DNA of 43,419 nt from Fidelibacterota bacterium (lineage in GTDB: Bacteria; Fidelibacterota; UBA2242). Every line of letters starts with the position of its first letter. Position 1 is the first letter of the stretch. Positions 1,464 through 43,419 of the stretch are shown here, in pieces. The position numbers were made by a program, and so were the translations under genes. The notes beneath the pieces are model-generated. The model ran no database searches. It was given only the letters and a program-made list of their open reading frames with translations, and was not told the origin of the DNA. Where the stretch lies: NCBI GenBank assembly GCA_028719225.1, contig JAQUKI010000001.1, positions 1 through 43,419 on the forward strand, in the 5' to 3' direction.

Positions 1464-1473
1464 ACATATCACC

Positions 1474-7530: not shown

Positions 7531-7596
7531 GAAATATTTCCGCGTCAGGACAAAAGGATTAGCGGCAGGTTATTTCCGAAGCGTATGTTTTCGTTT

Positions 7597-8676: not shown

Positions 8677-8804
8677 TCTATCTTTTCCAAATCATTGATT
8701 ACAACAGTACAAACCATAACAAAACATTTTTTAATAAATCATATGTAATGACAATATAGAGCAACATTTGAATAAAATGAAGATGTTTTTCGTCGTCATG
8801 ACTA

Positions 8805-8833
8805 TTTACAGATAGATGAATAAACGGTAAGTT
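8805..8833 (+). promoter_or_regulatory. Candidate sigma70-type promoter for the 8858 operon.
   Basis: TTTACA, a 17-nt spacer, then TAAGTT, about 25 nt upstream of the AAGGAG Shine-Dalgarno site and ATG. Pattern match only. Confidence 0.35.
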
Positions 8834-8857
8834 TGTGTTGTTTATTAAGGAGAAGAA

Positions 8858-23613: not shown

Positions 23614-23614
23614 G

Positions 23615-25636
23615 TTAACGAACGATCACAAATTTGCCGATTATCTCGCCTAAAGTAGGCGATTTGACCACATACATGTAAATCCCCGGCGCGGCTTCCT
23701 GATTATTACGGGTCATCAGATCCCACTCGGCCACACTGGCCGCATTCGGGCTAACTTCCTCGCCGACAACTACGGTGCTGTTGGCTTTCGTTTCTGCCAC
23801 ATAATCTCCGTCGAGTGTAAAGATCTGAATCGTTGCATCGGCGGGCAGATTTGTAAATTGCAGACGATGTTCCCATGCAAATGAATCGCTCGGCGTGCGG
23901 TTATTCCAGCTGGCACTTCCCAAATAAGGATTCGGCACAACCTTGACGTTTTTAAGCGTTTGAGTTGCAACCGGATTGGCGGGTGAAATGATATTGGCAT
24001 TTTTTCCAGTATAGATTACCCCAATCGGCTCCGGGATTTCTTCTGTGAAAGCCTGAACGGCGTAATAGTAAACCAATCCCTTGATAATATCTTCATCTAT
24101 GTAACAATATTTTCCATCGTCATCAACGGGCGGTGGCCAGGTAGCGCTTCCGACCGTATCGGTATATGTTGCCAGCGTAGTCCACTCAACCGAGCCGCTA
24201 CTGGATTTTTGTCCTTTTGAAAGCACATAACCTTGAAATTTTGGATGTGTTGTTGAGTTAGCATCCCATTTGACGAAGACACCTTTGGTTACATTATCTT
24301 CGACTTTTTGTTGTAATTCCACGACAGGCGTAGAGGGTGGTTCAAGAGCGGCAATATCGTAGTCGACATCAACAATAAATTGGGCAATTTTCATACTCTT
24401 GACAAGCTTCACCAAACTGTAAACACCGCCACTGTCAAAATCACAACCAATACCCAAAGCGGTCGTGACCACAACCGAATCACCGGGTGGCAATGAATCC
24501 AGCGGCCCGAATGTAAGAATTCCGCGGAAATCATAAGCATACGGCAGGCCGGTGGTAGGATTGGAAAAAATATCTTCAAAAATCGGACTGCTAATCATTC
24601 GCGACCAGGTTAGTGCATCTGAAGTCGGATCGTTATAAATCTGGCAAACGTGAAACGAACTCGGTTTCAACTCTGGAACGCTCTTTAGTACTTTAATACC
24701 AATAAAGCCTGGCGTTTGCAGTTTTCCATCGGCACTCATGTTGCCGAAATCATTTGCCTGACCATTTTCCGCCGTATAACTGGGATTATCACCATCGAAC
24801 ATGATGATCATATGGCTGTCGGCATCGGCGGATGTCAGACCATGGTCACGTCCTGCCATCCGACTTTTATTGTCGTTCGGGTCTGCCGGATCAGCGAACT
24901 TTTCGATCCAGTCCCACTGACTGTTCGACATGGCATGGTCATCGATATTACAATATTTCGACTCGGCATCCCATTGCGGTAATTTGGACACATCACCGTC
25001 AAAGCGGATCGTAAAGTAAAAATCCTTTAAACCCCGCGGAGTGTCGGGCAGCCCATCGCCGTTGGTATCGATTCCAACATTCTTAATCGTATACTCATAA
25101 ATGATGAAATCCGCCGCATAACTGGCGGACCAGGCGTATGTACGTTCCTGAACTTCCAGCCCGAGCGGAAAATGGGTTCCCGAAGCCAACGGCGCCGTTA
25201 CATCGTAATATTTTGTGTAGGTATCTTCTTCGGATCGAGCATTTGTGCTGGTATCGACATGCACTGAGTCCAGAGCAGAAAATTCATGATCGTCGCCTTG
25301 CGTGGAGTGAAAAGTTCCGTCCACAAAAGCCGACAACCAGAGCGTTCCGCGATAAAGGTAAGAATTCCCGGAGCCGCCCGGATAATCGCCGGAAGGTGTG
25401 CGATTGGTATAGGAATCATCACCCATGTAACTGTAATTAGAGCAACGGTTCCAGATATTGCCGATTTTATGCCACTTGTAGTTATCATCTACAATCGGGC
25501 TTTGTGCTGAAAGAGAAATTTTCGACAATCTGGTCGGTTTCTTGGCTTGATCTGCGGCTATCGCAAAGTTAAAAATGAACAGACCGATCAATAAAATCTT
25601 GATAATGTTTTTCATCTTTTTTAAATATTGATTCAT
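23615..25636 (-). CDS. Uncharacterised secreted protein with an FN3-like module and a divergent T9SS CTD (cassette 2).
   Basis: GGAGG Shine-Dalgarno site and a signal peptide. Shares YPGG, ...RTYAWS.../...RTSKAWS..., an FN3-like block (VFVKWD...GYVLSKG...YYYAVQA) and the CTD-like end (VVPNPY...TIQIFTLDGDYV...APGIYMYVV...FVIVR) with 1474-3348. Confidence 0.7.
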   Translation of the reverse strand: MNQYLKKMKNIIKILLIGLFIFNFAIAADQAKKPTRLSKISLSAQSPIVDDNYKWHKIGNIWNRCSNYSYMGDDSYTNRTPSGDYPGGSGNSYLYRGTLWLSAFVDGTFHSTQGDDHEFSALDSVHVDTSTNARSEEDTYTKYYDVTAPLASGTHFPLGLEVQERTYAWSASYAADFIIYEYTIKNVGIDTNGDGLPDTPRGLKDFYFTIRFDGDVSKLPQWDAESKYCNIDDHAMSNSQWDWIEKFADPADPNDNKSRMAGRDHGLTSADADSHMIIMFDGDNPSYTAENGQANDFGNMSADGKLQTPGFIGIKVLKSVPELKPSSFHVCQIYNDPTSDALTWSRMISSPIFEDIFSNPTTGLPYAYDFRGILTFGPLDSLPPGDSVVVTTALGIGCDFDSGGVYSLVKLVKSMKIAQFIVDVDYDIAALEPPSTPVVELQQKVEDNVTKGVFVKWDANSTTHPKFQGYVLSKGQKSSSGSVEWTTLATYTDTVGSATWPPPVDDDGKYCYIDEDIIKGLVYYYAVQAFTEEIPEPIGVIYTGKNANIISPANPVATQTLKNVKVVPNPYLGSASWNNRTPSDSFAWEHRLQFTNLPADATIQIFTLDGDYVAETKANSTVVVGEEVSPNAASVAEWDLMTRNNQEAAPGIYMYVVKSPTLGEIIGKFVIVR

Positions 25637-25666
25637 TAAAAAACCTCCATATTACTCATGGGAGCG

Positions 25667-28483
25667 TTAGAATTGCACTTCGACGCCAAAGCGATACTGC
25701 CGCCGATCACTATATGCCTGGGGATTATAAACCAAACCGCCGCCAACCAACGTCTCATCGAGAACAATTGTAGGATCGCCGGTCTGGCCATAATACATGG
25801 AACTGCCGATCCAATCGACATTCAGGCGGTTGAATAGGTTGAACACATCCAGAAAAACGTTCACGTCGGCCCCAGCCACGGCAACCTGTTTGCTCAATCT
25901 TAAATCAGTATTGAATGTCGCGGGTAGACGCTTATCATTGACTTTTCCGGTACCATACGAGGAATAGGGCAAACCGCTGCCATATTTAAATTGGAAATTG
26001 GCGTGCCAGTTGGTGAATGGTTTATAATTATAGAAGCGCAAACCAAAAATCTCGTCTTTCGGCGTGCATAATGTCAGATTTGCATTAAGCGTATGTGTCT
26101 GGTCAAAACTCAGATAATTCAACCGCCTGGAGTCGCTAAAAGCGCCGGCTCCACTACTCGAAGTCGAACTGCGTCCTTTAGCAACTGAAAAAGTATAGTT
26201 CAGTGATCCACCCCAGAATTTCCCGATCCGCTTGGTCAAAGCAAATTCCAAGCCTTTCATGTTGCCATAATCGGCATTTCCATAAACATTGATTTCAATC
26301 CCTTGAAGGTTCTCCCCAATATATTTGTACCAGTTCATCAAGTTGGTCACGTCTTTATAATAACCTGTGATCGATCCCTTGATGTCATCGCTAAAAAGAT
26401 GTTCAACACCAATTTCGTAGGCTACCGTCTTTTCGGGATCGATATTAGGATTGCCGACATAATTGCCAACTTTAGTCAATGCCTGAAAGTACATGTTGCG
26501 GTAGAGATAATAGGCATCCGGACGCTGAAAATAGTGACCGTAAGAGAAATGAATGACATCGCGCTCGGTTATCGGATGCGAGATCGCAATGCGGGGGCTG
26601 AACTGTGATTTAGCGCTAGGCTTTTTTGGATTGATTAGAATCGGTAGTCCACTTGTATCCAATTCGGAATAGGGATTGTTATAATCAGCCGGATAGTTCA
26701 CACCATCACCACCTCCGTTCGGATCAAAATAATCGAAACGCAAACCAATGAGGGCGATAATTCCCTGAAACTCTATCTTATCCTGAGCATAAAGCCCAAA
26801 GTCTATAGTATTTTTATCCCAGATGTCTTCCCGGAAGGTGCCATAACCCAGTGTCCAACTAATGTTTTCGACAGACATCCGACTATAATCGAATTCAAAT
26901 CCGGCTTTGATTAAATGATTGTAGGTTGCCTGGCTGACAAAATCACCTTTAATCGTATTAGTCCACGATTTCTGATCGCGATAACCCGGATCGTCACCAA
27001 CGATCCACCAGTAATTATTCTCCTGATCGCGATAAATCGGATGCGGGCCATCTTTTGTGTCGTCCCAAACCAAATCCTCTTCTGTATTATTATCACCATC
27101 TCGATCATCTACGTCCTGCGTGGCATAATGGTAATTGGAATAGTAGGATTGCCAGCGTAGTTCATAGTAAGTGCGAGAACTAAGCGACTGCGTCCAGACC
27201 AAATATAGGTTGCGGCTGTTCTGGTGATAATTCCAGAGATAGTCCTGCATCGATCCGACATAATACGTTTTAGTAAAATGAGTCGTATCACCTTCCTGTA
27301 ATACCAGAGTATCAATTGTTGATTGTCCATTCTGCGACCAATATTTCTGCGGATCATTGACATAAATGTAGTGCAAGGCTGTGTCACTACCGGTGCTTTG
27401 CTCGCACCAGTATTCATTTGCCTGGTAATCCTCACCCGGACCGTACTTTGATGCTGGTAAGTAAAATTCGTCCCAGTCTTTTTTCGAATAGAGTCCGCCA
27501 ATTGATAATTTGGTTTTGGAAGTCGGTTTGATGGTCACCTTTCCTTGGTAAGATTGATTATTGTATTGCTCGTTAATAAAATTGCCCTGATTGCGATCGG
27601 TGATTTCTGCCGATGCCGAGAAATTGGCTTTCTTTGTGAAGAGCGGCCCATTTAGGCTGAATTGATAATTGTTTTCTAATTTATGCAGATAAGTGACGCC
27701 CAGCCAATCACCACGCTCACCCATCAACAGGTCATTCAGGCCAGATCCGAAATTTGTCGACATAAAACGTGCTTTACCGGATAATTTTTGGCTGCCTTCC
27801 TTTAATGCCAGGTTTAATACACCGGATTGAACATTGCCGTATTCAGCGCTGAACCCTCCTAACGTGACTTCCATTTCCTGAATTGCGGCTTCGGGAACGT
27901 CGGCCGTGAATCCTCCCATATTGCCGGAATATTCGCCAGCAGGGTCTTTCACGGGCAAACCGTCAATCACGACCAAAACCTCGCCAACACGTCCACCACG
28001 AAAATGGCTGCCGACCGTGCCCGCCTGGTTTTGTGCAATTTGTTGAAAATTATCGATCGGCTGACCCGTCATTTCTTCGGCGGTAACCGTATGTCGGGAA
28101 GTAAACTCATCTTTTCGCATTAAAGGGCGCTCCGCCGTAACGATCACGCTTTCTCCAGCCTCTAAAACGGTAGATTGCATGGAAAAATCTTGTTTTGTAG
28201 TCAGATCTATCGACACCACAACATTCTTAGTTATCACAGGAGTATAGCCGATCATCATGGCCTTTAAATCATACGTACCCACCGGGACGTTCAATATCGT
28301 ATAAAATCCCTCATTGTCGCTGGCAACACCCATCGTAGTACCTTCGAGAACGATATTAACACCGGGCAGCGGTTTTCCTGATGCGGCATCTTTAACAATA
28401 CCGGTGATTTTCCCACTGGTACCGGCGAAAACGCCCATTGCCATGGTCAAAGTTAGACTGACAAGTAACAGATATCTTCGCAT
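25667..28483 (-). CDS. TonB-dependent-receptor-like outer-membrane barrel with N-terminal CarboxypepD_reg domain (cassette 2).
   Basis: AGGAGG Shine-Dalgarno site and a signal peptide. GKITGIVKDAASGKPLPGVNIVLEGTTMGVASDNEGFYTILNVPVGTYDL. TonB-box-like ESVIVTA, a plug region, a long barrel, and a terminal Phe (VEVQF). Confidence 0.85.
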   Translation of the reverse strand: MRRYLLLVSLTLTMAMGVFAGTSGKITGIVKDAASGKPLPGVNIVLEGTTMGVASDNEGFYTILNVPVGTYDLKAMMIGYTPVITKNVVVSIDLTTKQDFSMQSTVLEAGESVIVTAERPLMRKDEFTSRHTVTAEEMTGQPIDNFQQIAQNQAGTVGSHFRGGRVGEVLVVIDGLPVKDPAGEYSGNMGGFTADVPEAAIQEMEVTLGGFSAEYGNVQSGVLNLALKEGSQKLSGKARFMSTNFGSGLNDLLMGERGDWLGVTYLHKLENNYQFSLNGPLFTKKANFSASAEITDRNQGNFINEQYNNQSYQGKVTIKPTSKTKLSIGGLYSKKDWDEFYLPASKYGPGEDYQANEYWCEQSTGSDTALHYIYVNDPQKYWSQNGQSTIDTLVLQEGDTTHFTKTYYVGSMQDYLWNYHQNSRNLYLVWTQSLSSRTYYELRWQSYYSNYHYATQDVDDRDGDNNTEEDLVWDDTKDGPHPIYRDQENNYWWIVGDDPGYRDQKSWTNTIKGDFVSQATYNHLIKAGFEFDYSRMSVENISWTLGYGTFREDIWDKNTIDFGLYAQDKIEFQGIIALIGLRFDYFDPNGGGDGVNYPADYNNPYSELDTSGLPILINPKKPSAKSQFSPRIAISHPITERDVIHFSYGHYFQRPDAYYLYRNMYFQALTKVGNYVGNPNIDPEKTVAYEIGVEHLFSDDIKGSITGYYKDVTNLMNWYKYIGENLQGIEINVYGNADYGNMKGLEFALTKRIGKFWGGSLNYTFSVAKGRSSTSSSGAGAFSDSRRLNYLSFDQTHTLNANLTLCTPKDEIFGLRFYNYKPFTNWHANFQFKYGSGLPYSSYGTGKVNDKRLPATFNTDLRLSKQVAVAGADVNVFLDVFNLFNRLNVDWIGSSMYYGQTGDPTIVLDETLVGGGLVYNPQAYSDRRQYRFGVEVQF

Positions 28484-28938: not shown

Positions 28939-30045
28939 ATGAAAAAATTTGTTTGGGCCATTTTTCTAATCATTTCAACATTCGCTGGCGCGCAGGAATT
29001 TAATCCTGAAAAAGTTCCACCAATGAAATTTTATGGTAAGGACTTTTATCGAATCGAGGGAACAATGATTTCCGATTCTCTCAAAGAAAACTCTTTCGAC
29101 CGCTTACCATTGAGTTACCAGAATAAAGTCAGAAAATCCGTCTGGGAATTGTCAAAAAACTCCGCCGGGATTTCCATTCGGTTTCTGTCTAATTCGACAT
29201 CAATCAAGGCCAAATGGGAATTGCTTACAGATAAAAAAATGAACCATATGGCGGAAACGGGAATCAAAGGCGTCGATCTCTATGCAATGGTCGGAAATCG
29301 CTGGCAATTTGTAAATACCGGCAGACCGACCGCAGTAAAAAACGAGGCGTTGCTCATTGAAAACATGACACCGGTTTTAAGAGAATATCGCCTGTTTTTA
29401 CCTTTATACGACGGTGTCTCGGCGGTGGAAATCGGAATCGATTCACTCAGCGAAATCATCCTACCGCCTGTTCTGAGAACGAAACCGATCGTTTTTTACG
29501 GAACCAGCATCACGCAGGGCGGATGCGCCTCGCGCCCCGGAATGGCATATACGAACATCATTTCGCGAAAACTCGACATGGACTGTATTAACTTCGGTTT
29601 CAGCGGCAATGGTAGGATGGAAGCGCCGCTCGTTGAACTGATCTCGGAAATCGACGCCGCATGTTATGTGATCGACTGCATTCCGAATATGACAGTGAAT
29701 CAGATTCATGAAAACACAAAGCCACTGATCGAAATCATTCGGAAAAAGCACCCGAACACTCCCATCGTTTTCATCGAACAGATGATTTATGAGAAAGCAT
29801 TTTTCGATTCAACCGTTTATCAATTGATCACTCAAAAGAATGCCGCGTTGAAATCCGAAGTAACAAAGTCTATCGAATCGGGATTTGCCAACATCTACTA
29901 TATTGACAATCAGTATCCTTTAGGAAATGACCACGAAGCGACCGTTGACGGCGTACATTTTACGGATTTGGGATTCATGCGCTTTTCCGACTATCTGATA
30001 GATAAGTTCAATCGATTCGGGATCATCACTTCTTCGGATAAATAA
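28939..30045 (+). CDS. SGNH/GDSL-family hydrolase (carbohydrate esterase-like) with an N-terminal beta-sandwich domain.
   Basis: Signal peptide ...FAGA|Q. SGNH blocks FYGTSITQGG (Ser nucleophile), GFSGNG and DGVHFTDLG (DxxH). Confidence 0.8.
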   Translation: MKKFVWAIFLIISTFAGAQEFNPEKVPPMKFYGKDFYRIEGTMISDSLKENSFDRLPLSYQNKVRKSVWELSKNSAGISIRFLSNSTSIKAKWELLTDKKMNHMAETGIKGVDLYAMVGNRWQFVNTGRPTAVKNEALLIENMTPVLREYRLFLPLYDGVSAVEIGIDSLSEIILPPVLRTKPIVFYGTSITQGGCASRPGMAYTNIISRKLDMDCINFGFSGNGRMEAPLVELISEIDAACYVIDCIPNMTVNQIHENTKPLIEIIRKKHPNTPIVFIEQMIYEKAFFDSTVYQLITQKNAALKSEVTKSIESGFANIYYIDNQYPLGNDHEATVDGVHFTDLGFMRFSDYLIDKFNRFGIITSSDK

Positions 30046-32928: not shown

Positions 32929-32965
32929 AGAGCCGCGGTTATTTTCCTGCGGCTCTTTTATTTTA
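32929..32965 (+). terminator. Rho-independent terminator after the YtrA-type operon.
   Basis: AGAGCCGC, a 12-nt loop, GCGGCTCT, then TTTTATTTT. Confidence 0.6.
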
Positions 32966-33022: not shown

Positions 33023-33051
33023 TTGACATTCATGCAAATATTCTCTAACAT
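33023..33051 (+). promoter_or_regulatory. Candidate sigma70-type promoter for rdgB (and possibly sprA).
   Basis: TTGACA, a 17-nt spacer, then TAACAT, about 35 nt upstream of the TTG start at 33087. Confidence 0.4.
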
Positions 33052-33086: not shown

Positions 33087-33695
33087 TTGAATATATTAAT
33101 CGCATCGAACAACCAACACAAGATAAAGGAGATTCGGCAAATATTTACGCTACCGAATGTGACTTTGCTGACTTTGGATGAGTTTCCCGACGCCCCGATC
33201 CCCGAGGAGGACGGGAACACCCTCTATGAAAACGCATTTAAAAAAGCGTCTATGTTATCAAAATTTACAGGATTGCCAACGCTCGCCGACGATACTGGAC
33301 TGGAAGTCAACGCGTTGAGCGGTCAACCCGGCGTTCGCTCGGCACGGTATGCCGGCGAAAACGCGACTTACGACGAGAACATCGAAAAACTGTTGAGCGA
33401 AATCGACAAAGTCGAGAACCCCGACCGAAACGCTCGGTTTCGGTGTGTCGCGCTTTTTTATCATCCAGACATAACACTTTCCGAAGAAGGATACATCGAA
33501 GGCGCGATCCTTTCGCGCCGACACGGTTTCGGCGGATTTGGTTATGATCCGATTTTTTACATCCCTTCCGCCGGAAAAACCTTTGCCGAAATGACCGAAG
33601 AGGAAAAGAATAATCTGAGCCATCGCGGGATGGCATTTCGGAATCTTCATAATTCTCTCATGAATAAAATTCATCAACTAACCCACAAATATTGA
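33087..33695 (+). CDS. rdgB: Non-canonical purine NTP pyrophosphatase (dITP/XTP pyrophosphatase, RdgB/HAM1 family).
   Basis: ILIASNNQHKIKEI, LADDTGLEVNALSGQPGVRSARYAG, FGYDPIF, AEMTEEEKNNLSHRG: the full set of family motifs. Confidence 0.9.
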   Translation: MNILIASNNQHKIKEIRQIFTLPNVTLLTLDEFPDAPIPEEDGNTLYENAFKKASMLSKFTGLPTLADDTGLEVNALSGQPGVRSARYAGENATYDENIEKLLSEIDKVENPDRNARFRCVALFYHPDITLSEEGYIEGAILSRRHGFGGFGYDPIFYIPSAGKTFAEMTEEEKNNLSHRGMAFRNLHNSLMNKIHQLTHKY

Positions 33696-33788
33696 GGTGC
33701 CGCCTAAGCATTTTTGATACTGTTTTCTGTTTGTAGCTCATATTAATTTTTTCAAGGTGGCAGTCCTATTTTTTACCGTCGCGTAACA

Positions 33789-36700
33789 TTGTGCTTTCTT
33801 TTACTGGTCGGATTAAGCCGGATCGACGCTCAGGTCGCATCCGAAGATCCGGCACAGGATAATTTTTATATTAAAGTCGATTGGTTGGCAAAACATTTTG
33901 CCGGTATGCGGATCGATGAAAAACGTGGTTTGTCGTTTATCTCGCCTAATTACGTTTCGCTTAACGCCAATATCCTGACAGTCCAATTCGCGTCGGCAAA
34001 AATGGAGCAAAAGCCCGATTTGTCCGGCACTAATCTCCTGTTCACCAATCAAATGAGCGGAACGGACATTTTTCTCCCGCGTGGCATTTCGTTCGATGAC
34101 TATTACCAGATGAAAACGAAGACCGCTTTGCGCAAACAACTAAATGAATTGATCGCCAAAAGCGCTGAGGAAGAAAAAAAGACGCCCGCAACCGAAAAGA
34201 TAGAACTGATCGGCGCCGACATCGCCGGACAACGCGTATCGCTTCAGGTCTCGGGAAATGTCAATATCAACGGCAAGTTGCAAAACCAAAAACGATCTCA
34301 GGTACGCTCCGGTTATCAGGAAGGTCAGTCCACGACGTTCATCATCGATCAGAAACAGCAGTTGAGCATCGAAGGTAAAATCGGCGACCGAATTAGCATT
34401 CTTGTCGATCAGGACAGCGAACGCGACTTTGACTTTGAAAATGCGTTAAAAATCGTCTATACGGGACATGAAGACGACATCGTTCAAAAGGTCGAAGCCG
34501 GAAACGTCGCGCTGTCTCTGCCGGGGACCCAGTTTGTCACTTTTTCCGGCAAAAACAACGGACTGTTCGGGCTCAAGGCGCTGATGAAACTCGGCCCGGT
34601 TGACGTAACCACGATCGCATCGGTCGAAAAAGGTAAAAAGGAAAAACTCAGCGTGGACGGCGGCGCCCAAACATCGACCGGATACATCAAAGACTACGAT
34701 TACCGTAAAAACCAGTACTTTTTCCTCGATATGACTTACCGGGATTCTTTGTATACCGATTTTCAAACAACCGGAATACTTAATTTAACTAATCGCATTG
34801 TATCCGATCTTGAAGTTTACAAGTCCGTCACGACGGAAACCGCCGGATGCGTTTACGGCACTGCGTGGGTGAATCCCAACGATGAATCACAGAATGCGGA
34901 TCAAAAAGAAGAACATCTGTTCAAGCGCCTCGACCTGAGTAAAGATTATGTGGTTGATCTAAATTTAGGAATCCTTCGAGTATCGACACAACTTCAGGAA
35001 TCAGAGGTGCTTGCAGTTGCCTATCGCATAACAAATACTGCAGGAACGACCATTGAAGAGTACGGACAATGGGATCGCGCTGCCACTGATACGAATGACA
35101 TCAAATTGAAGATCATCAAACCGCAACAACTTTTACCATCGCATCCGTGCTGGAATCTGGAATTTAAAAATGTTTATTTCCTTGGAACGACCGGTATCAA
35201 CGAAGATGGTTTCGACCTGAACATCGTCTATAACTGGGGCAAGAACGGGGACATCGACCGCGATGAAACCGACGGTAAAACTTTCCTTGAAAAATTCGGT
35301 CTCGATCGTAAAGACAAGAGCGGAAATGCCACGCCCGATAATATTATCGACTTGGATAACAAATCTATTATCAATCTGCAAACGGGCGAACTCTGGTTTC
35401 CTTTCCTTCGCCCGTTCCAGTACAAGCAAAATGACCTGACAGGCGAACACAATCCGAATTTAGATTCGGCAAATTACAACTGTTCGGCAATGTACGACAG
35501 CAACCGGACAAACGCTTCGGCCATTAACGAGGACACGAAATTCAAGATCAAGTACAGTTATGAGAACCGAAGTTCGAATATCAGTCTCGGCGCAATGGTC
35601 ATCGAAAACAGCGAGTCGGTGACACTTAACGGGCAGACGCTGACGCGCGGCGTCGATTACACAATCGATTATTTCTCCGGAAGTCTTACGCTTCTTAAGG
35701 CCGAAGCCACAAATCCGGACGCCAAGCTGGACATCAAGTACGAAAAGAATCAATTCTTCCAGTTAGACAAGAAAACGATCCTCGGCGCGCGCGCGCAATA
35801 CGATTTCGGCGAAAACTCCTATATCGGCGGTACCGCGCTCTATTTCAGCCAGTCGGTAGTCGATGAAAAAGTGGATATCGGTTACGAACCAATGCGGAAT
35901 TTCGTTTGGGATTTGAATACGAAATTAAGCAAGAACCTGAATTTCCTCACACGCGCGGTCGATTGGCTGCCGCTGGTTCAGACCAATGAAACATCGAACA
36001 TTTCCTTTGAAGGTGAAATCGCGCAGGTGCGACCGAATCCCAACACATTGAGCAATGAATCGACCGACGATCCCGACGGCGTCGGATTCATCGACGATTT
36101 TGAAGGCAGCAAACGCATCACTTCGCCGCCGATTATGCGCCAATACTGGTCGCTTTCGGCAGCCCCGGTCGGCAAAACACAGAACCAGCGCGGCTTTGCT
36201 TTCTGGTTCAATCCTTATGGCGGTGTCGCGACGACGAGTATCTGGCCGAATAAAGAGGTCAGTACTCGCGCACAGAATAATCTAACGGAAGTTCTCGGAA
36301 TCGCCATGAATCCGAAATGGTCGATTCGTGTTGGTGACGGGCTCGAACCGGCTGAAAATGCATGGGGCGGCATCACCTATTATTTCCCCACAAGCTATTA
36401 CGACCAATCCAAGACCAAATATGTCGAGATTTGGGTCCGAGGAAAAACCGGGCAGTTGCATCTCGATCTCGGATATATCAGCGAAGATCAGGACGGCAAC
36501 GGAGCGTTGGACACAGAAGACAAACCGGAGCTCACCTATACCGGAAACGGTCTTCTGGATAATGGCGAAGATATCGGTCTTGACGGCGTCAAGGACGAAT
36601 ATGAAGAAATCGAAGATTCGTTCGGTGATATCATCCCGTATGGAGATTCTCGGCTCACGAAATACGCGCGCGAAACCGACGATCCGCATTCGGACAACTG

Positions 36701-39700
36701 GAGTTGGAAAGAGACCTCCACAAATTACCGGCATATCAATGGGACAGAAGGCAACGAAAACGATGTCAATGGTCTATATCCGGATACTGAAGATTTAAAC
36801 TCCAATATCGCTCTCGATGAAATTAACGATTATTTTTCCGTCGATTTCAACCTGGACGACAGCAAGGATGAGCAGTACGTCGCCGGGCGAACCGAATACT
36901 CAAACGGTCAGGAAACCGGATGGAAACTTTACCGGATCCCGCTATCAGAATTTCAGAAAATCAAATCCGAGGCCACCGTCACATGGCAGACGATTCGTTC
37001 CTGCCGTTTATGGGTAGACGGTTTCAGCGACGAAGATACGCTATGGATCGCCAAGATCGAGATGGTCGGGAATGAATGGGAAGAGGTCGGCATAGCGCCT
37101 TCCGAAACCGAGTCGTTCGTCGTCAACACGGAATCCTTTTCGGTCAGCGTCGTCAATTCGGAAGACAATCCGGACACTTACGAGGCGCCGGATGGAGTTC
37201 AAGGCGAATATGACCGCATCAACGAAATCCGCATGAAAGAGCAATCGCTGGTCCTGTGGTTCGACGGTGAGGAAGGGCTCCAGCCGGGCGCGCTTTGTGC
37301 GGCAAAAAAGGTTCTCGCAGAAGAAGCCAGTTTTATTACCTATAAAAAAATGAAACTGTTTGTAAACGGTAGCAATATCCATTCGCGAAGCCACATTTAT
37401 CAGGATGGAGAACAAACTCCGCTTCAATTCTTCATTAAATTCGGTCGTTTGGACGAAAAATACGCGCTTCACTACTACGAATACCGTCAACCGATCTATC
37501 CCGGCTGGGACTCGAAAAACAAAATGGAGATCGACCTGGATTTTATCACTCAGTTAAAATCCTACACGACGGAAGAATCGTTCCCGGATAACGACCAGCA
37601 TCCCAAACGATTCCGGATCTATTATGACGATGCCGGGGAAATTGTCAAGAGGCATTATCGCGAAGTTAAAGACGGAAAATATACCGGCGTCGAGATAATC
37701 ATCGTCGGAAACGCCGCGCTGTCACGCGTTGCCCGAATCGACATCGGGTTGAAGAACCAGAAATATTCCTTAGACGACCTAACCGAATCCTCTCCATATT
37801 CCCGATACGACAATACAATGTACGGCGAAGTCTGGCTTGACGAACTCCGGTTGTCGGAAGTCCGGCGCGACGCGGGTATCGCCTATCGTACGAAAGCATC
37901 GTTGAAAATTGCCGACCTCGCGACTCTTGATATCAGCATGGATCGGCGCGACGCCGACTTTCACACCGTCGAGCAAAGACCATCTCTGACGACAGATGCA
38001 TTGAATACGACGGAAAGTTTTCGGCTCGGCGGCCGGATTTCTCTCGACAAATTTACACCAAGTTCATGGGGCGTTCGTCTACCGTTGACCGGCGCGTATT
38101 CTCAAAACATCAGCACACCTAAATACATTCCGGGTCAGGATGTTCTTGTCGGTGATTCGCCGCCGGACAGTATCCTGAGCATTTCGCGTTCATACAGTAT
38201 GAACATCTCTTACGAAAAGCGTGTTTCCGATTACTGGCTGACCAAGTACACGATCGACCAGATCAAAGCCGGATTCAGCGCCCAATGGGCGAATAATTCC
38301 ACAGTCACTTACAAGGACAACGACGCCCAAAATTATAAGGCAAACATGTCCTACCGCGTGCCGTTCGGAAAAGAAAACTATTTTAAGATATTCAAGTGGA
38401 TGTCGTCGGTTCCGTATCTCGGAAACAAACTCGGCGAGGTGCGCTGGTACTACACGCCGAGCAACCTCGACTTTTCATTCGACACAGCCGAAGACATCAA
38501 AAACACGGTTACGCGTGGTTCCGCCTCCGACACAAATTACACGCACACTCTTGCCATGAACAGCCGCATTAACCTGAGTTATAAGTTCTTCGATAATCTG
38601 AATCTAACATACTCCAAAGACTTGAAGAACAATATGGATGAGTTGAAAAATGATAAATGGCAGGCGGTGCAAAGGTTAAATTTCGGCGTCCCTGTCAGCG
38701 TTCGTGAAAATTATTCCGCCTCCTTCTCTCCGAAAATATTCAACTGGTTATCGCCCAATATTAACTATACCGCGAATTATAACTGGTCGGAACCAATGGG
38801 CAGTGAAACGAAAAGTCTCGATGTGTTAAGCAATCAAAACCGGGTCTCGACAAGTTTCCAGCTCGATCTCGCTTCCATTTTAAACTCTGTTTATTCGCCC
38901 ACCAAAACAACGACCAGCCCGCAGCCGGCCACAGGCAGAACGCCCACCCGCGGACGCTCCGGCGGACGTTCGACTGAAGAACAATCAGAATCACCGGAAC
39001 AGCGCGGACGTCCGGGAGAGCCCGGGCAGACGGATCAACCCGGACCGCCCGGAGAACATGGACGCCCGGCCCCATCTGAACAATCGGAGAAAATGGCACA
39101 ACCGTCACAAACAGACAATAAAAAAATTGTCAAGCAGGAACTTGACGAGCCAAGGCAGATCAAATCGCTGGATATTCTCAGTAAATATCTGAAAAAATTG
39201 TCCGCCATACAATTCAGTTATTCATTCAGCCAATCCGTGAACAACAGGTATCGAACCTACGGCACGCCTGGAATTGCCTACCGGATGGGCTTTACACCGG
39301 ATCCGGGATTATCCCTCGTGGAATCGGAAAAAGGTGTCGGTAAAGACAATATCACGACCGGTATGGACGCATCGCTCCGCTCCGGGCTGAGCATTACTCC
39401 AAATATCAATACGTCGCTATCGTTCGCACAAAACATCTCTGTCACCAATTCTGCCGGACAAACGGGCAGAAACCTCAGCCGTGATTTTTTCCCGATGGGT
39501 AAAAACGGCAAGGACGGTTTCCCATTCCCGAACTGGACCGTCGGTTGGAATAACCTTGAAAAAATGAAACTGCTGAATAAAGTGTTTAAAAAACTGAGTC
39601 TCGACCACAGTTTTTCCGGAAAAGAAGCGATCGTCTGGAAAAACGGTAAAGTAATGAACTCTTCATATAAAATCTATTTCCAACCGCTCCTGAGCGTCAA

Positions 39701-40130
39701 TATGCAGTTTAAGAATGACATGACGGCGACCGCCCGCATGACCCAGGGAAGCACGATCAACAACCGTGACGCCGCTACGGAAATTACAGACGAAATGGGT
39801 ATTCAGACGACGGTCAATTTCCAGAAAAAAGGCGGCTTTACCATTCCGCTTCCCTTCCTGAAAGATAAACGTCTGGAAAATAATATAACGTTTGCCCTGA
39901 CATACGATTATAATTCATCCAAGACGCGCACCCGCGCTGCGAAGGGGGGAAAATTCGTCACCCAATCGGAAAACAATTCATGGAAGATCGCGCCACGCAT
40001 CGGTTATTCCTTTACAAAAAAGGTTACCGGCTCAATATATTATGAATATGGAGAAAGTTTCAACCGCTCGACCGGAAGAAGAACGACTAAAAACGGCGGT
40101 TTCGATATCAACATAGCAATCAGAGGTTAA
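33789..40130 (+). CDS. sprA: T9SS outer-membrane translocon SprA (Sov).
   Basis: 2113 aa. The N-terminal block DFDFENALKIVYTGHEDDIVQKVEAGNVALSLPG...LFGLKALMKLGPVDVTTIASVEKGKKEKLSVDGG matches my recollection of the SprA_N signature (FDFQN..KL.Y...EDDI.QK.E.GNVS.PL...LFG.K). Giant beta-rich barrel. The true start may be upstream at 33768 (see findings). Confidence 0.88.
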   Translation: MCFLLLVGLSRIDAQVASEDPAQDNFYIKVDWLAKHFAGMRIDEKRGLSFISPNYVSLNANILTVQFASAKMEQKPDLSGTNLLFTNQMSGTDIFLPRGISFDDYYQMKTKTALRKQLNELIAKSAEEEKKTPATEKIELIGADIAGQRVSLQVSGNVNINGKLQNQKRSQVRSGYQEGQSTTFIIDQKQQLSIEGKIGDRISILVDQDSERDFDFENALKIVYTGHEDDIVQKVEAGNVALSLPGTQFVTFSGKNNGLFGLKALMKLGPVDVTTIASVEKGKKEKLSVDGGAQTSTGYIKDYDYRKNQYFFLDMTYRDSLYTDFQTTGILNLTNRIVSDLEVYKSVTTETAGCVYGTAWVNPNDESQNADQKEEHLFKRLDLSKDYVVDLNLGILRVSTQLQESEVLAVAYRITNTAGTTIEEYGQWDRAATDTNDIKLKIIKPQQLLPSHPCWNLEFKNVYFLGTTGINEDGFDLNIVYNWGKNGDIDRDETDGKTFLEKFGLDRKDKSGNATPDNIIDLDNKSIINLQTGELWFPFLRPFQYKQNDLTGEHNPNLDSANYNCSAMYDSNRTNASAINEDTKFKIKYSYENRSSNISLGAMVIENSESVTLNGQTLTRGVDYTIDYFSGSLTLLKAEATNPDAKLDIKYEKNQFFQLDKKTILGARAQYDFGENSYIGGTALYFSQSVVDEKVDIGYEPMRNFVWDLNTKLSKNLNFLTRAVDWLPLVQTNETSNISFEGEIAQVRPNPNTLSNESTDDPDGVGFIDDFEGSKRITSPPIMRQYWSLSAAPVGKTQNQRGFAFWFNPYGGVATTSIWPNKEVSTRAQNNLTEVLGIAMNPKWSIRVGDGLEPAENAWGGITYYFPTSYYDQSKTKYVEIWVRGKTGQLHLDLGYISEDQDGNGALDTEDKPELTYTGNGLLDNGEDIGLDGVKDEYEEIEDSFGDIIPYGDSRLTKYARETDDPHSDNWSWKETSTNYRHINGTEGNENDVNGLYPDTEDLNSNIALDEINDYFSVDFNLDDSKDEQYVAGRTEYSNGQETGWKLYRIPLSEFQKIKSEATVTWQTIRSCRLWVDGFSDEDTLWIAKIEMVGNEWEEVGIAPSETESFVVNTESFSVSVVNSEDNPDTYEAPDGVQGEYDRINEIRMKEQSLVLWFDGEEGLQPGALCAAKKVLAEEASFITYKKMKLFVNGSNIHSRSHIYQDGEQTPLQFFIKFGRLDEKYALHYYEYRQPIYPGWDSKNKMEIDLDFITQLKSYTTEESFPDNDQHPKRFRIYYDDAGEIVKRHYREVKDGKYTGVEIIIVGNAALSRVARIDIGLKNQKYSLDDLTESSPYSRYDNTMYGEVWLDELRLSEVRRDAGIAYRTKASLKIADLATLDISMDRRDADFHTVEQRPSLTTDALNTTESFRLGGRISLDKFTPSSWGVRLPLTGAYSQNISTPKYIPGQDVLVGDSPPDSILSISRSYSMNISYEKRVSDYWLTKYTIDQIKAGFSAQWANNSTVTYKDNDAQNYKANMSYRVPFGKENYFKIFKWMSSVPYLGNKLGEVRWYYTPSNLDFSFDTAEDIKNTVTRGSASDTNYTHTLAMNSRINLSYKFFDNLNLTYSKDLKNNMDELKNDKWQAVQRLNFGVPVSVRENYSASFSPKIFNWLSPNINYTANYNWSEPMGSETKSLDVLSNQNRVSTSFQLDLASILNSVYSPTKTTTSPQPATGRTPTRGRSGGRSTEEQSESPEQRGRPGEPGQTDQPGPPGEHGRPAPSEQSEKMAQPSQTDNKKIVKQELDEPRQIKSLDILSKYLKKLSAIQFSYSFSQSVNNRYRTYGTPGIAYRMGFTPDPGLSLVESEKGVGKDNITTGMDASLRSGLSITPNINTSLSFAQNISVTNSAGQTGRNLSRDFFPMGKNGKDGFPFPNWTVGWNNLEKMKLLNKVFKKLSLDHSFSGKEAIVWKNGKVMNSSYKIYFQPLLSVNMQFKNDMTATARMTQGSTINNRDAATEITDEMGIQTTVNFQKKGGFTIPLPFLKDKRLENNITFALTYDYNSSKTRTRAAKGGKFVTQSENNSWKIAPRIGYSFTKKVTGSIYYEYGESFNRSTGRRTTKNGGFDINIAIRG

Positions 40131-40131
40131 T

Positions 40132-41052
40132 GTGAAAAAAGTTTATCCTGTATTTTTTATCTTCATGCTTTTGCTCGCCAATTGTTCGACGCATTCGTTC
40201 AATTTCGACGGCGAGAAAGCATATCAATATCTCCAGCAACAATGCGATCTTGGCGTGCGGAATCCCGGTTCGACGGGGCACAATGCCGCAAAAGAACTCA
40301 TCACGAAAACGGTCTCACCGCTCGCCGATACAGTCGTATTTCAAGAATTTGAATCATACGTCGATTCCGAGAAAGTCACGTTAAAACTTACCAATATCGT
40401 CGCCGGATTTGCGACAAAGAAAGGCAACCCGCTTCTCATCGGCGCGCACTTCGACACCCGGCCGCGCGCAGACCGCGATCCCAATCCGCTGAACCGCGAA
40501 TTTCCCATTATTGGCGCGAACGACGGCGCCAGCGGCGTGGCGGTTCTTCTGCATCTGGCTGAACTCCTCAACCAGAATCCACCGCCGCGAACAGTCTATC
40601 TGGTTTTCTTCGACGGAGAAGATTACGGCTTTTCCGGAACGCTCGATTACTACTGTATCGGCTCGGAGTATTTCGCGAAAAATCTGCCGATCCCAAAGCC
40701 TGTCGAAGCGATCGTCGTCGATATGATCGGCGATGCCGACCTTTCAATACCCGTCGAACGCAATTCCTACCGTAGTCATCCAAAACTCACGAAGCAGTTG
40801 GGAGATATTGCCCGCAAACGCGGATTCAATCAATTCGAACACCGGTTGGGCGAGGAAATTTACGACGATCATCTCATGCTGATCCAATATGCCGGTATTC
40901 CGTCCGTGGATTTGATCGATTTCGAGTATCCGAACAAATCGACCAATTACTGGCACACAACGCTCGACACGCCGGACAAATGCAGCGCGAAAAGTCTTCG
41001 GGTTATCGGTCAGGTGCTTTGCGATTATATCTATGGAGAGAATGAAGAATAA
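40132..41052 (+). CDS. M28-fold zinc protein, glutaminyl-peptide cyclotransferase-like lipoprotein.
   Basis: GTG start 1 nt after the sprA stop. Lipobox LLLANC. AHFDTR, GANDGASGVAVLLHLAE, FFDGEDYG, VDMIGD. The C-terminal IPSVDLIDF...YWHTTLDTPD resembles the IP..HLI...WHT..D motif of animal-type/Bacteroidetes QCs. M28 aminopeptidase is not excluded. Confidence 0.6.
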   Translation: MKKVYPVFFIFMLLLANCSTHSFNFDGEKAYQYLQQQCDLGVRNPGSTGHNAAKELITKTVSPLADTVVFQEFESYVDSEKVTLKLTNIVAGFATKKGNPLLIGAHFDTRPRADRDPNPLNREFPIIGANDGASGVAVLLHLAELLNQNPPPRTVYLVFFDGEDYGFSGTLDYYCIGSEYFAKNLPIPKPVEAIVVDMIGDADLSIPVERNSYRSHPKLTKQLGDIARKRGFNQFEHRLGEEIYDDHLMLIQYAGIPSVDLIDFEYPNKSTNYWHTTLDTPDKCSAKSLRVIGQVLCDYIYGENEE

Positions 41053-41905
41053 TTCCGACATAAAGAGCGAACCGGCAAAAAAACCCTGGAAAAAGATCGT
41101 CTTCAGCCGAAATGTATGCGACGAAGAGCTTCTGCTGGCTCTCCTGGGTGCAAATGATAATGTAGCCACGCTGGAATTCGGAGATCGGATCGAAGCCATT
41201 TTCCCGATTGAAGAGCGCGAGCGGCTATTTGAATCGTTCGAACCGTTCGCCGAAAAACTTCATCTTGCCGGCGCGATCCTTTCCGAAGGCGACATCGCGG
41301 ATGAAAACTGGCGACTGAACTGGCAGAAGTATTATCGACGGATCGATCTGGAAAACGGAATCAGTATTCGCCCTTACTGGGTAGCGCCGAAACCGGACGC
41401 TGAATTGGAAATCGCCATTAAACCCGGCATGGCATTCGGCACCGGCACGCATGAAACGACACAGTTAGCCCTTCTTTTCCTAAAAAAATATCTCCGACGC
41501 GGAATGACCGTTCTCGATGCCGGTTGCGGCAACGGAATCCTGTCGATTGCCGCTTTAAAACTCGGCGCCGCATCCGTCGATTGCCGGGACATCGATCCGG
41601 ATGTTGAGGAAAATTTCCATGAACAAATGACACTGAACCAAATCTCCGGAAATTTCTCGTTTCAAGTCAGCGACGCAACCGACCTGAAATCGTATGATTA
41701 CGATCTCATTCTGAGCAATATCGAACGGAAACCGAATTTGCACCTTCTGCAATCGGCGGCCGAGAATTATACGCATGCGTTGATCATCTTTACGGGAATT
41801 CTGACAGATGAATATACGATATTTGCCGACGCCGTGCTAAATTACGGGCGAGAAGTCGTTGAGACGATGACTAAAAGTGAATGGATTGCAATCGTGGTGA
41901 AATAA
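41033..41905 (+). CDS. prmA: Ribosomal protein L11 methyltransferase.
   Basis: PGMAFGTGTHETTQLAL and VLDAGCGNGILSIAALKLGA are PrmA/SAM-binding motifs. The start is 41033 or 41042; either overlaps the upstream stop. Confidence 0.88.
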   Translation: MERMKNNSDIKSEPAKKPWKKIVFSRNVCDEELLLALLGANDNVATLEFGDRIEAIFPIEERERLFESFEPFAEKLHLAGAILSEGDIADENWRLNWQKYYRRIDLENGISIRPYWVAPKPDAELEIAIKPGMAFGTGTHETTQLALLFLKKYLRRGMTVLDAGCGNGILSIAALKLGAASVDCRDIDPDVEENFHEQMTLNQISGNFSFQVSDATDLKSYDYDLILSNIERKPNLHLLQSAAENYTHALIIFTGILTDEYTIFADAVLNYGREVVETMTKSEWIAIVVK

Positions 41906-42973
41906 ATGAAATCATACCGGTTTATTAGTCTTGTCATTCTTGCTTTCGGGCTGGCATCCTGTTTTAAACCGACGACGGAAACACCCGAGTCCGGTAATCC
42001 TGCGATCGACAGTCTTACGATTCATTATTCACAGATAAACAAATCCATTTTCATTGCCGCCGATATTTCCGACCCGCAGGGAACCGACGATATCGACTCG
42101 GTCGTTTTTACACTTTCACGATTAGCGAGCGAAACTTCGACAACCGGCACACCGATTTTAACCGGGCGTCTATCGGACAATGGTCCGCCTGAAGATATTA
42201 TCTGCCGCGATGGCGTTTTTTCATTTCTCGTCGATTCGGCCATTTTCGGCAACCGGAACGGCTATTACAAAGTTGAAGTCGTTGCATACGATTCTGACGG
42301 CAATGAAAGTGAGGCGGTTTTCCAAAAAACAAAAGTTGAAAAAAACGCGGCGCCGACGATCTTCATGCTTTCCGCTCCAACTAACTTTGAAAAAGGCGAC
42401 ACGTTGAAATTCAGAATCCGGGCGACTGACCCGCAAGGATCGGACGACATCGTCTCCGTTTCGTACGGTATCCGGCGTCCGAACGGCCAATATTCGGAAG
42501 ATCCGACATGGACTTTACGCGACGATGGTGTGATGGGTGATGATCACGCCGACGACGGCATTTATACGGTTTTTCAACCTTCCAGCGCTCAAAGCGTAAT
42601 TCAGGGACTCTTCACTTTTTATTTCATTGCTAAAGACGTCAGCGGCGAACGGAGCGACACGCTAAAAGCCCCGATTACCAATCCCGGCGTCACAGTCACA
42701 TTTCCGAACCTTCAGGAAAGCTTTTCTGTCGGAGATACATTATCGATCCGCTGGGAAAGCGCCTATATTGCATCAGTCCAACTTGCCTATACTCTCAATG
42801 CCAGCGCAGCGGATCCGACATTTACCAATATTGTCATCATCACGGCATCAACCGGGCTTTACCGCTGGAAAATCCCATCCGGTCTTCAATCATCCGACTG
42901 TCGGATCAAAATATACGACACGTCGAAATCCAGCCGTTACGACATCAGCGACAACTCATTCACGATCCAATAA
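41906..42973 (+). CDS. Lipoprotein with tandem Ig-like repeats, function unknown.
   Basis: ATG lies immediately after the prmA TAA. Lipobox GLASC. Repeated units carry DISDPQGTDDIDSVVF and RATDPQGSDDIVSVSY. C-terminal Ig-like module (SIRWES...YRWKIPSGL...CRIKIYD). Confidence 0.6.
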   Translation: MKSYRFISLVILAFGLASCFKPTTETPESGNPAIDSLTIHYSQINKSIFIAADISDPQGTDDIDSVVFTLSRLASETSTTGTPILTGRLSDNGPPEDIICRDGVFSFLVDSAIFGNRNGYYKVEVVAYDSDGNESEAVFQKTKVEKNAAPTIFMLSAPTNFEKGDTLKFRIRATDPQGSDDIVSVSYGIRRPNGQYSEDPTWTLRDDGVMGDDHADDGIYTVFQPSSAQSVIQGLFTFYFIAKDVSGERSDTLKAPITNPGVTVTFPNLQESFSVGDTLSIRWESAYIASVQLAYTLNASAADPTFTNIVIITASTGLYRWKIPSGLQSSDCRIKIYDTSKSSRYDISDNSFTIQ

Positions 42974-43419
42974 TGAAAAAAAAATTATACCTGATAACAA
43001 TTCTGTTATTCGTCGCCTCCGCGTTGAACGCGCAGGCATTTCGGCTTTCCAAACCTTCGCTGATCGACAACAATCGCACTTATTCCGGATTGTCGGGAAA
43101 CGCCGTCACACAAATCGAATCGCATGGCGACTCGATCCTGTGGTTTGCGACCGGCGGCGGATTGAGCCGATCGAGCGATTTCGGGCAAACTTTCGTCAGT
43201 TATTATCCGATTCCGGACAGCATTCCCAAAGGTGGAATTTCATCGATCGCCACATTGGATTCCATCATCTGGATCGCCGGCGTATTCGATTCAACGACCG
43301 AAATCGGCTCCTACCAGACCGGCGGCGGACTCGCTTTTTCGAAAGATTTCGGACTGAACTGGACATTCGTTCCACAACCAATAGACTCGGTGGGCAATAA
43401 AAATGAGAAATATGAATAT
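42973..43419 (+). CDS. Secreted beta-propeller-like protein; 3' end cut by the window edge.
   Basis: Absent from the ORF track because it is open-ended. My own read from ATG 42973 (TAATG overlap) gives MKKKLYLITILLFVASALNA|QAFRL...ILWFATGGGLSRSSDFGQTF...IWIAGVF...GGGLAFSKDFGLNWTF, a propeller-blade style, open to the window end. It displaces the Arg-rich 210-aa ORF in another frame. Confidence 0.6.
   Translation, partial: MKKKLYLITILLFVASALNAQAFRLSKPSLIDNNRTYSGLSGNAVTQIESHGDSILWFATGGGLSRSSDFGQTFVSYYPIPDSIPKGGISSIATLDSIIWIAGVFDSTTEIGSYQTGGGLAFSKDFGLNWTFVPQPIDSVGNKNEKYEY

Follow-up and report, generated by a model that had tools for sequence, protein, structure and literature searches.

We analysed a 43,419-nt stretch of DNA from a Fidelibacterota bacterium (contig JAQUKI010000001.1), called the window in what follows, in which sprA, encoding the SprA/Sov type IX secretion system (T9SS) translocon, is directly followed by the gene of a 306-aa lipoprotein that, judged by its sequence and modelled fold, is a type II glutaminyl cyclase (QC) of the bacteroidal type. 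The sprA gene occupies positions 33789-40130 of the plus strand, and its product gives a full-length match to the SprA/Sov equivalog TIGR04189 (E = 3e-257, 857 bits vs a cutoff of 200) and a match to Pfam SprA_N. It ends with the TAA at 40128-40130, a single T follows at 40131, and the GTG at 40132 opens the 306-aa reading frame, which runs to 41052 on the same strand, exactly the 1-nt spacing that an earlier note on this DNA had reported. Within the last sprA codons, 5 nt before this GTG, we read a Shine-Dalgarno-like AGAGG (40122-40126, plus strand). The TAA-T-GTG junction is identical in two relatives, L084 and L001, whose QCs are 96% and 91% identical to that of the window, respectively. 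The closest relatives of the 306-aa protein come from organisms called Candidatus Marinimicrobia, Neomarinimicrobiota or Fidelibacterota, a phylum of the Fibrobacteres-Chlorobi-Bacteroidetes (FCB) group and not Bacteroidota, in agreement with the non-Bacteroidetes character that the earlier note had given to the organism.

The pair is embedded in a tight series of genes, all on the plus strand. Upstream, 93 nt from sprA, lies a gene for an rdgB/Ham1-family nucleoside-triphosphate pyrophosphatase (33087-33695; Pfam Ham1p_like, E = 5e-61). Downstream, a prmA-like gene for a ribosomal protein L11 methyltransferase (41033-41905; Pfam PrmA, E = 9e-47) overlaps the 3' end of the QC gene by 20 nt, and right after its stop begins the gene of a 355-aa lipoprotein (41906-42973), which shows a weak match to a choice-of-anchor X domain and is syntenic in L002-L007 and L084. 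The 5' part of a gene for a protein of about 523 aa (42973-43419) follows, its start overlapping the preceding stop in a TAATG; an orthologue of this protein carries the Pfam domain FlgD_ig, and its signal peptide, MKKKLYLITILLFVASALNA, leaves Gln at +1. Consensus scans of the window found no terminator-like sites between the genes of this cluster, from rdgB to the 523-aa gene. The same scans placed a strong terminator-like hairpin at 32929-32956, before a promoter-like TTGACA-17-TAACAT upstream of rdgB (33023-33051, plus strand), a candidate start of the transcription unit that comes from the consensus scan only, with a consensus that may not be the one of this phylum.

The two genes thus lie on one strand, with a tiny gap and no intervening terminator, and this arrangement is kept in relatives, as expected of an operon. 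Co-transcription of sprA and QC, which the earlier note had implied, is the natural reading of the 1-nt gap, the Shine-Dalgarno-like motif, the terminator-free junction and the overlapping genes downstream, and the two genes are probably also translationally coupled. A point against co-transcription is that the 3' end of sprA may hold an internal promoter.

The window encodes further parts of the T9SS, namely two PorV/PorQ-family proteins whose scores exceed the cutoff and a cargo protein bearing a type-A sorting domain (TIGR04183). It encodes two SusC-like receptors as well. The start of sprA itself is ambiguous (33747-33830). The first ATG, GTG or TTG past the upstream stop is the TTG at 33789, which gives a signal peptide without a charged n-region. 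Two codons further upstream, the L084 sprA has GTG instead of the GTA of the window, and an in-frame ATT at 33768 would supply the charged n-region MFYRRVT and thereby the canonical arrangement MFYRRVT-LCFLLLVGL-SRIDA/Q (the slash marks the cleavage site here and below), suggesting that this ATT may be a non-canonical start. Residues ~1700-1790 of SprA (window ~38890-39160) form an insert of roughly 90 aa whose low-complexity sequence is enriched in Pro, Gly, Gln, Ser and Glu, and tblastn alignments to some SprA orthologues break at this insert (query ends at 1704-1708 in L007, L026 and L080).

The only Pfam family found for the 306-aa protein is Peptidase_M28 (PF04389, E = 9e-30), and no QC-specific NCBIfam model matches it, the matches in that collection being weak, sub-cutoff ones to DapE and aminopeptidases. 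Since NCBIfam has no matching QC model, the choice between QC and aminopeptidase was examined on sequences and folds of the Protein Data Bank (PDB). Using phmmer, the protein matches the QC entries 3gux (3e-48), 3tc8 (5e-43), 4fuu and 7d1d (2e-41), 6qro (TfQC, 2.5e-41) and 6qql (PgQC, 2e-37), together with the QCs from outside the Bacteroidota, 7D1B (1.6e-39) and 7D18 (1.6e-24). Animal QCs follow at 1e-5 to 1e-6, and genuine aminopeptidases, such as 2EK8 and YwaD (6HC6), at about 1e-4 (1e-4 to 6e-4). With an AlphaFold2 model of the protein (pLDDT 87, pTM 0.87) as the Foldseek query, all of the 50 top matches are QCs and none is an aminopeptidase, the model reaching TM-scores of 0.85-0.91 to the QCs of Bacteroides thetaiotaomicron, Tannerella forsythia and Porphyromonas gingivalis.

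The residues expected at the active site point in the same direction. D131, E163-D164, D197, D245-D246-H247 and W274-H275 are invariant in 13 aligned relatives. The zinc-ligand positions are found at D131 (GANDGASG), at E163-D164 (FFDGEDYG), where the Glu-Asp pair is that of the bacteroidal subgroup, and at H275 (YWHT). Among the catalytic residues, E163, D197 (VVDMIGD) and D245/D246 (YDDH) match HsGlu201, HsAsp248 and HsAsp305, the last by motif on what we take to be the human QC sequence. In their description of type II QC hallmarks, Taudte et al. (PMC7948796) identify PgAsp149, PgAsp183 and PgHis299 as the zinc ligands, note Glu-Asp rather than Glu-Glu in the bacteroidal subgroup, and place PgTrp298 just before the His ligand and PgPhe294 four residues earlier, positions at which aminopeptidases have Tyr and a small aliphatic residue. 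The Trp is invariant here (W274), whereas the position of PgPhe294, which is also Phe in BtQC and Phe or Tyr in most relatives, is Ser270 in the window protein, and this substitution weighs against a QC assignment.

That the protein might instead be a di-zinc M28 aminopeptidase is suggested by the names of its database homologues ("M28 family peptidase", "leucine aminopeptidase"), by the weak NCBIfam matches to aminopeptidases and DapE, and by the presence of all five metal-ligand positions of M28 aminopeptidases. Nevertheless, proven QCs outscore true aminopeptidases by 30-40 orders of magnitude in the PDB search, the 50 best structural matches contain no aminopeptidase, and the protein has two hallmarks of QCs, the E-D motif and a Trp preceding the His ligand, where aminopeptidases have Tyr (PMC7948796). 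Conservation of the zinc ligands is uninformative as a test of mono- versus di-zinc enzymes, because QCs keep all five positions. Indeed, the PDB entries 3tc8 and 4fuu, deposited as "leucine aminopeptidase", have been reassigned as QCs with one zinc (PMC7948796). We therefore regard an aminopeptidase as highly improbable, and the earlier note's preference for a QC-like protein is borne out by the PDB sequence matches and by Foldseek. The homologues publicly named "M28 family peptidase" should be named glutaminyl cyclase.

The predicted signal peptide of the QC, MKKVYPVFFIFMLLLAN, precedes Cys18 (codon 40183-40185; whole element 40132-40185, plus strand), and a Cys is found in 12 of the 13 aligned relatives. 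The lipobox is non-canonical, with Asn at -1, but the N-terminus is lipoprotein-like by sequence and matches that of PgQC, which is anchored via Cys21 (PMC7948796). More generally, the window QC shares with the bacteroidal QCs PgQC (PG_2157; 6QQL, 7CJE), TfQC (6QRO), BtQC (4FUU, 7D1D) and PdQC (3TC8) the M28 alpha/beta fold (rmsd of ~2 Å to the model), the Asp/Asp/His zinc ligands, the Glu-Asp pair, the catalytic Glu and Asp, the Trp-His motif, the lipoprotein Cys and a presumed periplasmic action on the products of signal peptidase I (SPase-I). It differs from them in sequence (~30% identity in structural alignment), in phylum, in having Ser270 for PgPhe294, and in gene context, as PgQC heads a PG_2157-PG_2158-hemG operon whereas the window QC lies 1 nt behind sprA. 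The QCs of Fimbriiglobus ruber (7D1B) and of an Acidobacteriales member (7D18) have the same fold and active-site residues, with TM-scores of 0.82 and 0.80, while animal QCs (human QPCT, Drosophila) have Glu-Glu instead of Glu-Asp, extra loops and TM-scores of ~0.7. We know of no QC of the 7D1B/7D18 type, nor of any animal QC, that is linked to a secretion-system gene. The M28 di-zinc aminopeptidases (2EK8, YwaD 6HC6) share PF04389 and the metal-ligand positions, but have Tyr before the His ligand and bind two zinc ions.

We then consider how far the sprA-QC junction is conserved. One genome per GTDB species was scanned with an alignment of QC relatives, giving 80 loci with 10-kb flanks, in which the neighbours were called by tblastn with the SprA, QC, PrmA and Ham1 proteins of the window. 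In 51 of the 80 loci, the gene just upstream of QC is a same-strand sprA, and the possibility raised in the earlier note that the adjacency is unique to this contig can be dismissed. The pairing is found in all 30 loci labelled Marinimicrobia, Neomarinimicrobiota or Fidelibacterota (Marinimicrobia, or Marinisomatota, below) that have upstream DNA, the contig of the 31st beginning inside the QC gene, and also in the four Calditrichia/Caldithrix loci and in both KSB1 loci; its carriers include a metagenome-assembled genome of an uncultured Caldithrix sp. (L048) and an uncultured Fidelibacterota chromosome (L049). It is absent from the five Ignavibacteriota, seven Bacteroidota and three Cloacimonadota loci, a weak test in the 4 of these 15 loci that have less than 1.5 kb upstream. 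Thus, although the Bacteroidota sprA/sov genes (F. johnsoniae sprA, P. gingivalis sov) encode an orthologous translocon (TIGR04189), the Bacteroidota (0/7) and Ignavibacteriota (0/5) loci, seen from the QC side, have no sprA beside QC, and the P. gingivalis QC is the first gene of another operon, PG_2157-2159 (PMC10653852).

The junction is tight in most Marinimicrobia-type loci: from the sprA stop to the QC start, the median distance is 2 nt, and 32 of the 44 loci stay within 10 nt, many of them with overlaps of -1 or -4 nt; this holds over QC identities from 96% down to ~42%. The gaps in Calditrichia and KSB1 are mostly 86-312 nt, with one of 4 nt. L080, in which sprA looks frameshifted and overlaps QC by 329 nt, was treated as an assembly artefact and left out of the gap statistics. 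The flanking genes vary, since Ham1 is found upstream in Marinimicrobia only, most of whose loci keep the Ham1-SprA-QC synteny, and prmA is found downstream in some lineages only; sprA-QC is therefore the persistent core of the unit. Our literature searches found no published sprA-QC linkage and no literature on the T9SS in Marinimicrobia, and as far as they show, the conservation of the pair across Marinisomatota, Calditrichota and KSB1 is new. What is already known includes the QC family, its solved members from outside the Bacteroidota (7D1B, 7D18), the Q-rule discussed below, and high Q-values in other FCB lineages.

The upstream neighbours of QC were compared in 10 of the loci without sprA and show no consistent T9SS link outside the three phyla, the genes there including those for PBP4, QueF, FolE2, a radical-SAM protein, a LiaG-like protein, a kinase, a generic TPR protein and a T9SS cargo protein. 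In L029 (Candidatus Hatepunaea), a 1227-aa TPR protein (6194-9877) precedes QC and shows YbgF and BamD repeats and a sub-threshold match to PorW/SprE (62 bits vs a cutoff of 250); in L076, the gene before QC encodes a T9SS cargo with a type-A C-terminal domain. On the other side, QC is followed within 0-2 kb by a same-strand prmA-like gene in 5/5 Ignavibacteriota, 5/7 Bacteroidota and 4/4 Calditrichia loci and in part of the Marinimicrobia. Besides the window, the loci concerned include L041, L050, L060, L065, L072, L068, L071, L074, L078, L079, L033, L044, L045 and L048, with the distance at ~1 kb or less except in L045. QC-prmA has a wider distribution than sprA-QC, and no functional reason for it is obvious; as this adjacency is itself widespread, conserved adjacency alone is no proof of shared function.

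Both the Q-rule, that is, Gln at position +1 of SPase-I substrates, and the associated cyclase count as specialities of the Bacteroidetes; in P. gingivalis, QC is a drug target. According to the earlier note, the secreted proteins of the window obey this rule, with Gln at +1 in 6 of 12 non-lipoproteins. All six of these sites, placed by eye, exist in the sequence: RIDA/Q in SprA, DIQA/Q in PorV-like protein 1, PLQA/Q in a 624-aa protein, VGGA/Q in a LolA-like protein, FAGA/Q in an SGNH-type esterase and ALNA/Q in the last open reading frame (ORF), the 523-aa protein. The six proteins without Gln are the two SusC-like receptors, a 902-aa protein, a 673-aa protein, PorV-like protein 2 and a GH20-like protein. 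We scored the sites with a home-made signal-peptide predictor, which selects the best (-3,-1) site closest to the first charged residue, without regard to which of the polar or small residues occupies +1. As a control, of the 16 sites that it scored in 150 kb of E. coli K-12 DNA, 2 have Gln at +1, and the ~13 genuine E. coli signal peptides scored were all placed at sites that we take to be the established ones.

In the window, this +1-blind predictor finds Gln in 3 of 10 scored proteins, namely the 624-aa protein (signal peptide ...VMYLPLQA, 3262-3348, minus strand), the LolA-like protein (...MALVSVGGA, 14115-14201, plus strand) and the SGNH-type esterase (MKKFVWAIFLIISTFAGA, 28939-28992, plus strand). 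The signal peptide of PorV-family protein 1 (1404-1463, minus strand) is ambiguous, being cleaved at VLA/GDIQAQ according to the predictor or at DIQA/QFDYGF by eye. SprA (MCFLLLVGLSRIDA, ending in SRIDA/Q, 33789-33830, plus strand) is not scored because no charged n-region follows its TTG start, and the last ORF because it runs off the window. Gln is at the predicted +1 in 11 of 19 SprA orthologues and at +1 in 56-64% of the family of the last ORF. Against a baseline of 9%, the 6/12 count gives p = 3e-4, and 3/10 gives p = 0.05, which is not significant; the earlier count is therefore plausible, but with three of its six sites recovered by the predictor it is not robust.

Related DNA provides a larger sample. 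Around QC in Marinimicrobia, Gln is at +1 in 45 of 102 sites (44%), followed by Glu (12%). In an enlarged sample of 1.05 Mb of related DNA, to which loci of a metagenome scan were added, it is at +1 in 46 of 183 sites (25%) and is still the commonest residue there; the scan was made with the 673-aa protein and brought 26 mostly orthologous loci and few new families, and its families without Q diluted the estimate. An internal control is given by the neighbouring positions, as Gln makes up 25.1% at +1, 1.6-8.7% at +2 to +8 and 3.3% in the mature bodies. Asn, which is more abundant than Gln overall, reaches only 1.6% at +1. The residue at -1 is often Gly or Ser instead of Ala. The PorV family has 20-29% Q and the SusC-like proteins have 0% Q in this related DNA. 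Several points weigh against the explanation proposed below: a few orthologous families dominate the samples, and when the 26 families are taken one by one, 7 have Q in the majority, 5 are mixed and 14 have none; the enlarged sample does not differ significantly from the small E. coli control (p = 0.2); and all of the sites depend on a home-made predictor. Taken together, the sequence data point to a Q preference in Marinimicrobia that is real but partial.

Two other measures had been tried. A first predictor, based on the -3/-1 residues only, gave 27% Gln, but it was noisy, placed sites inside h-regions and missed genes with upstream-extended frames, and it was replaced. The first polar residue after the h-region was considered as a prediction-free statistic and rejected, since the A-Q-A/ c-regions of E. 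coli inflate Gln, which reached 37% in the control.

The QC orthologues themselves alternate between a lipoprotein signal with its Cys and a signal peptide of SPase-I type that exposes Gln at +1 (L033, L034, L045, L047, L051, L052, L054, L058, L063, L067, L076 and L077), with non-lipoprotein examples such as SVYA/QFDG, QVFG/QEIPQF, ISFS/QDIPTF and FISA/QNIPDF. In those lineages, the QC would itself be a substrate of the Q-rule, and the Gln starts of both the SprA orthologues and these non-lipoprotein QCs would fit an action of QC on these proteins.

These levels can be compared with the published ones. Bochtler et al. 2018 (PMC5837995) report a mean Q-value of 71 +/- 10% in Bacteroidetes, more than 99% of whose species lie above 48%, values below 9% in most Chlorobi, and a continuum elsewhere, for example 77% in Ignavibacterium, 55% in Chloroherpeton and 24% in Cloacimonas. 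The Marinimicrobia share with the Bacteroidetes Gln as the most frequent +1 residue, the co-occurrence of a type II QC with the T9SS, and Q-starts that span several compartments, but at ~25-45% in related DNA they stay below the Bacteroidetes level and are intermediate, like the continuum of the other FCB lineages. The wording of the earlier note, that the signal peptides obey the Q-rule, is therefore overstated, although the enrichment itself (25% vs 3.3% in mature bodies) stands. As far as our literature searches show, a partial Q-rule in Marinimicrobia is new. In P. gingivalis, Q-positives make up 86% of T9SS parts and cargo and 88% of outer-membrane-protein-related proteins, the rationale given being that pyroglutamate (pGlu) shields exported proteins from aminopeptidases (Mizgalska et al. 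2023, PMC10653852). No dependence of the T9SS on pGlu was found by Bochtler et al., who noted a phylogenetic co-occurrence of the T9SS with high Q-values (PMC5837995).

We propose that the gene product is a zinc-dependent (mono-zinc) type II QC, presumably active, which by analogy with PgQC would be lipid-tethered through its N-terminus to the periplasmic face of the inner membrane. There, it would convert the N-terminal Gln exposed by SPase-I into pGlu and so block the attack of aminopeptidases. It would be transcribed together with sprA in the tight same-strand unit rdgB-sprA-QC-prmA-lipoprotein-523-aa protein, and its candidate substrates would be the SPase-I products with an N-terminal Gln (25-45%), including SprA, the 523-aa protein and the non-lipoprotein QCs. 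The linkage would then reflect selection for expressing a general maturation enzyme of the envelope along with the largest constitutive machine of the outer membrane, whose components and cargo QC would mature, and QC would not be a dedicated step of type IX transport. A general rather than T9SS-specific role is indicated because the Q-start proteins include the LolA-like protein and the esterase, because the PorV-family and SusC-like proteins are mostly non-Q, and because published experiments argue against a control of type IX secretion by pGlu (PMC5837995). We consider this explanation as a whole to be probable, and hold it with moderate confidence. It must be said against it that so tight a junction, kept over three phyla, also fits a specific functional dependence.

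Such a dependence would make QC a type IX accessory, the biogenesis or stability of SprA, or the handling of T9SS components or cargo, requiring pGlu; translational coupling would ensure that QC is present wherever and whenever SprA is made, and the Q-rule and the T9SS would have arisen jointly in the FCB ancestor. It is true that sprA-QC is the most persistent pair of the unit, Ham1 being lost outside Marinimicrobia and prmA in many lineages while sprA and QC keep together at distances of -4 to +9 nt. It is also true that the +1 residue of SprA is Gln in the window, as in the 11 orthologues mentioned above, and also in Calditrichia (L033) and KSB1 (L073 and L080), and that the Q-positive shares of P. 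gingivalis (PMC10653852) and the phylogenetic co-occurrence (PMC5837995) go in the same direction. Yet Bacteroidota and Ignavibacteriota have both the T9SS and QC with the genes unlinked, about a third of the SprA orthologues begin with a residue other than Gln, the proportions of Q given above for PorV-family and SusC-like proteins are low, and the loci without sprA have unrelated housekeeping genes upstream of QC. We therefore find this dedicated role unlikely, and just as doubtful the corresponding history, in which an sprA-QC(-prmA) operon of the FCB ancestor, with QC as a coupled translocon accessory, was later broken up in Bacteroidota and Ignavibacteriota. At the other extreme, sprA-QC(-prmA) could be the ancestral gene order of an FCB subclade, kept by inertia or operon hitch-hiking without functional meaning. 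QC adjoins the cytoplasmic prmA, which has no plausible link to it, equally or more widely, the unit also contains rdgB, and the 86-312-nt gaps of most Calditrichia and KSB1 loci mean that coupling is loose there. Inertia alone, however, does not readily explain why sprA and QC are still no more than 10 nt apart in 32 of 44 loci, over QC identities of 42-96%, while both flanks were reshuffled repeatedly, nor the ATGA- and TAATG-type start/stop overlaps, which are typical of selected translational coupling. Since the junction is tight and long-lived amid reshuffled flanks, we judge a neutral origin to be improbable.

On why such organisms cap their exported proteins, and why this trait tracks the T9SS, the sole published view is that the co-occurrence is not mechanistic. 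The tightly conserved sprA-QC junction in three other FCB phyla is the first genomic-context evidence that ties QC and the T9SS together, and the pair is a useful clue to the co-occurrence of the T9SS and the Q-rule. The earlier note saw in it a new link between translocon and N-terminal maturation; the linkage indeed appears unreported, but gene linkage is not evidence of a mechanistic link, as QC also adjoins prmA. Type II QC and a partial Q-rule are features of a larger portion of the FCB group, and the intermediate Q-value (25-45%) suggests a gradual evolution of the rule. Cultivated members exist for two of the phyla with the pairing, Caldithrix abyssi (Calditrichota) and Fidelibacter multiformis (Fidelibacterota).

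Some other features of the window can be noted. The gene of a GH20-like beta-N-acetylhexosaminidase (17267-19773) is split into overlapping ORFs of 275 and 588 aa, with a frameshift near 17971, whereas its orthologue in L087 is a single 835-aa protein, 85-90% identical; the split gene is a pseudogene or an assembly error. Two parallel triads on the minus strand (519-6592 and 22600-28483) each encode a SusC-like TonB-linked receptor, a protein without family (624 and 673 aa, respectively) and a PorV/PorQ-family protein, and look like loci of the polysaccharide-utilization (PUL) type with a PorV-family gene in the place of SusD. The family of the 673-aa protein has no NCBIfam match, and its close relatives (at least 52% identity) are found on 26 metagenome contigs.

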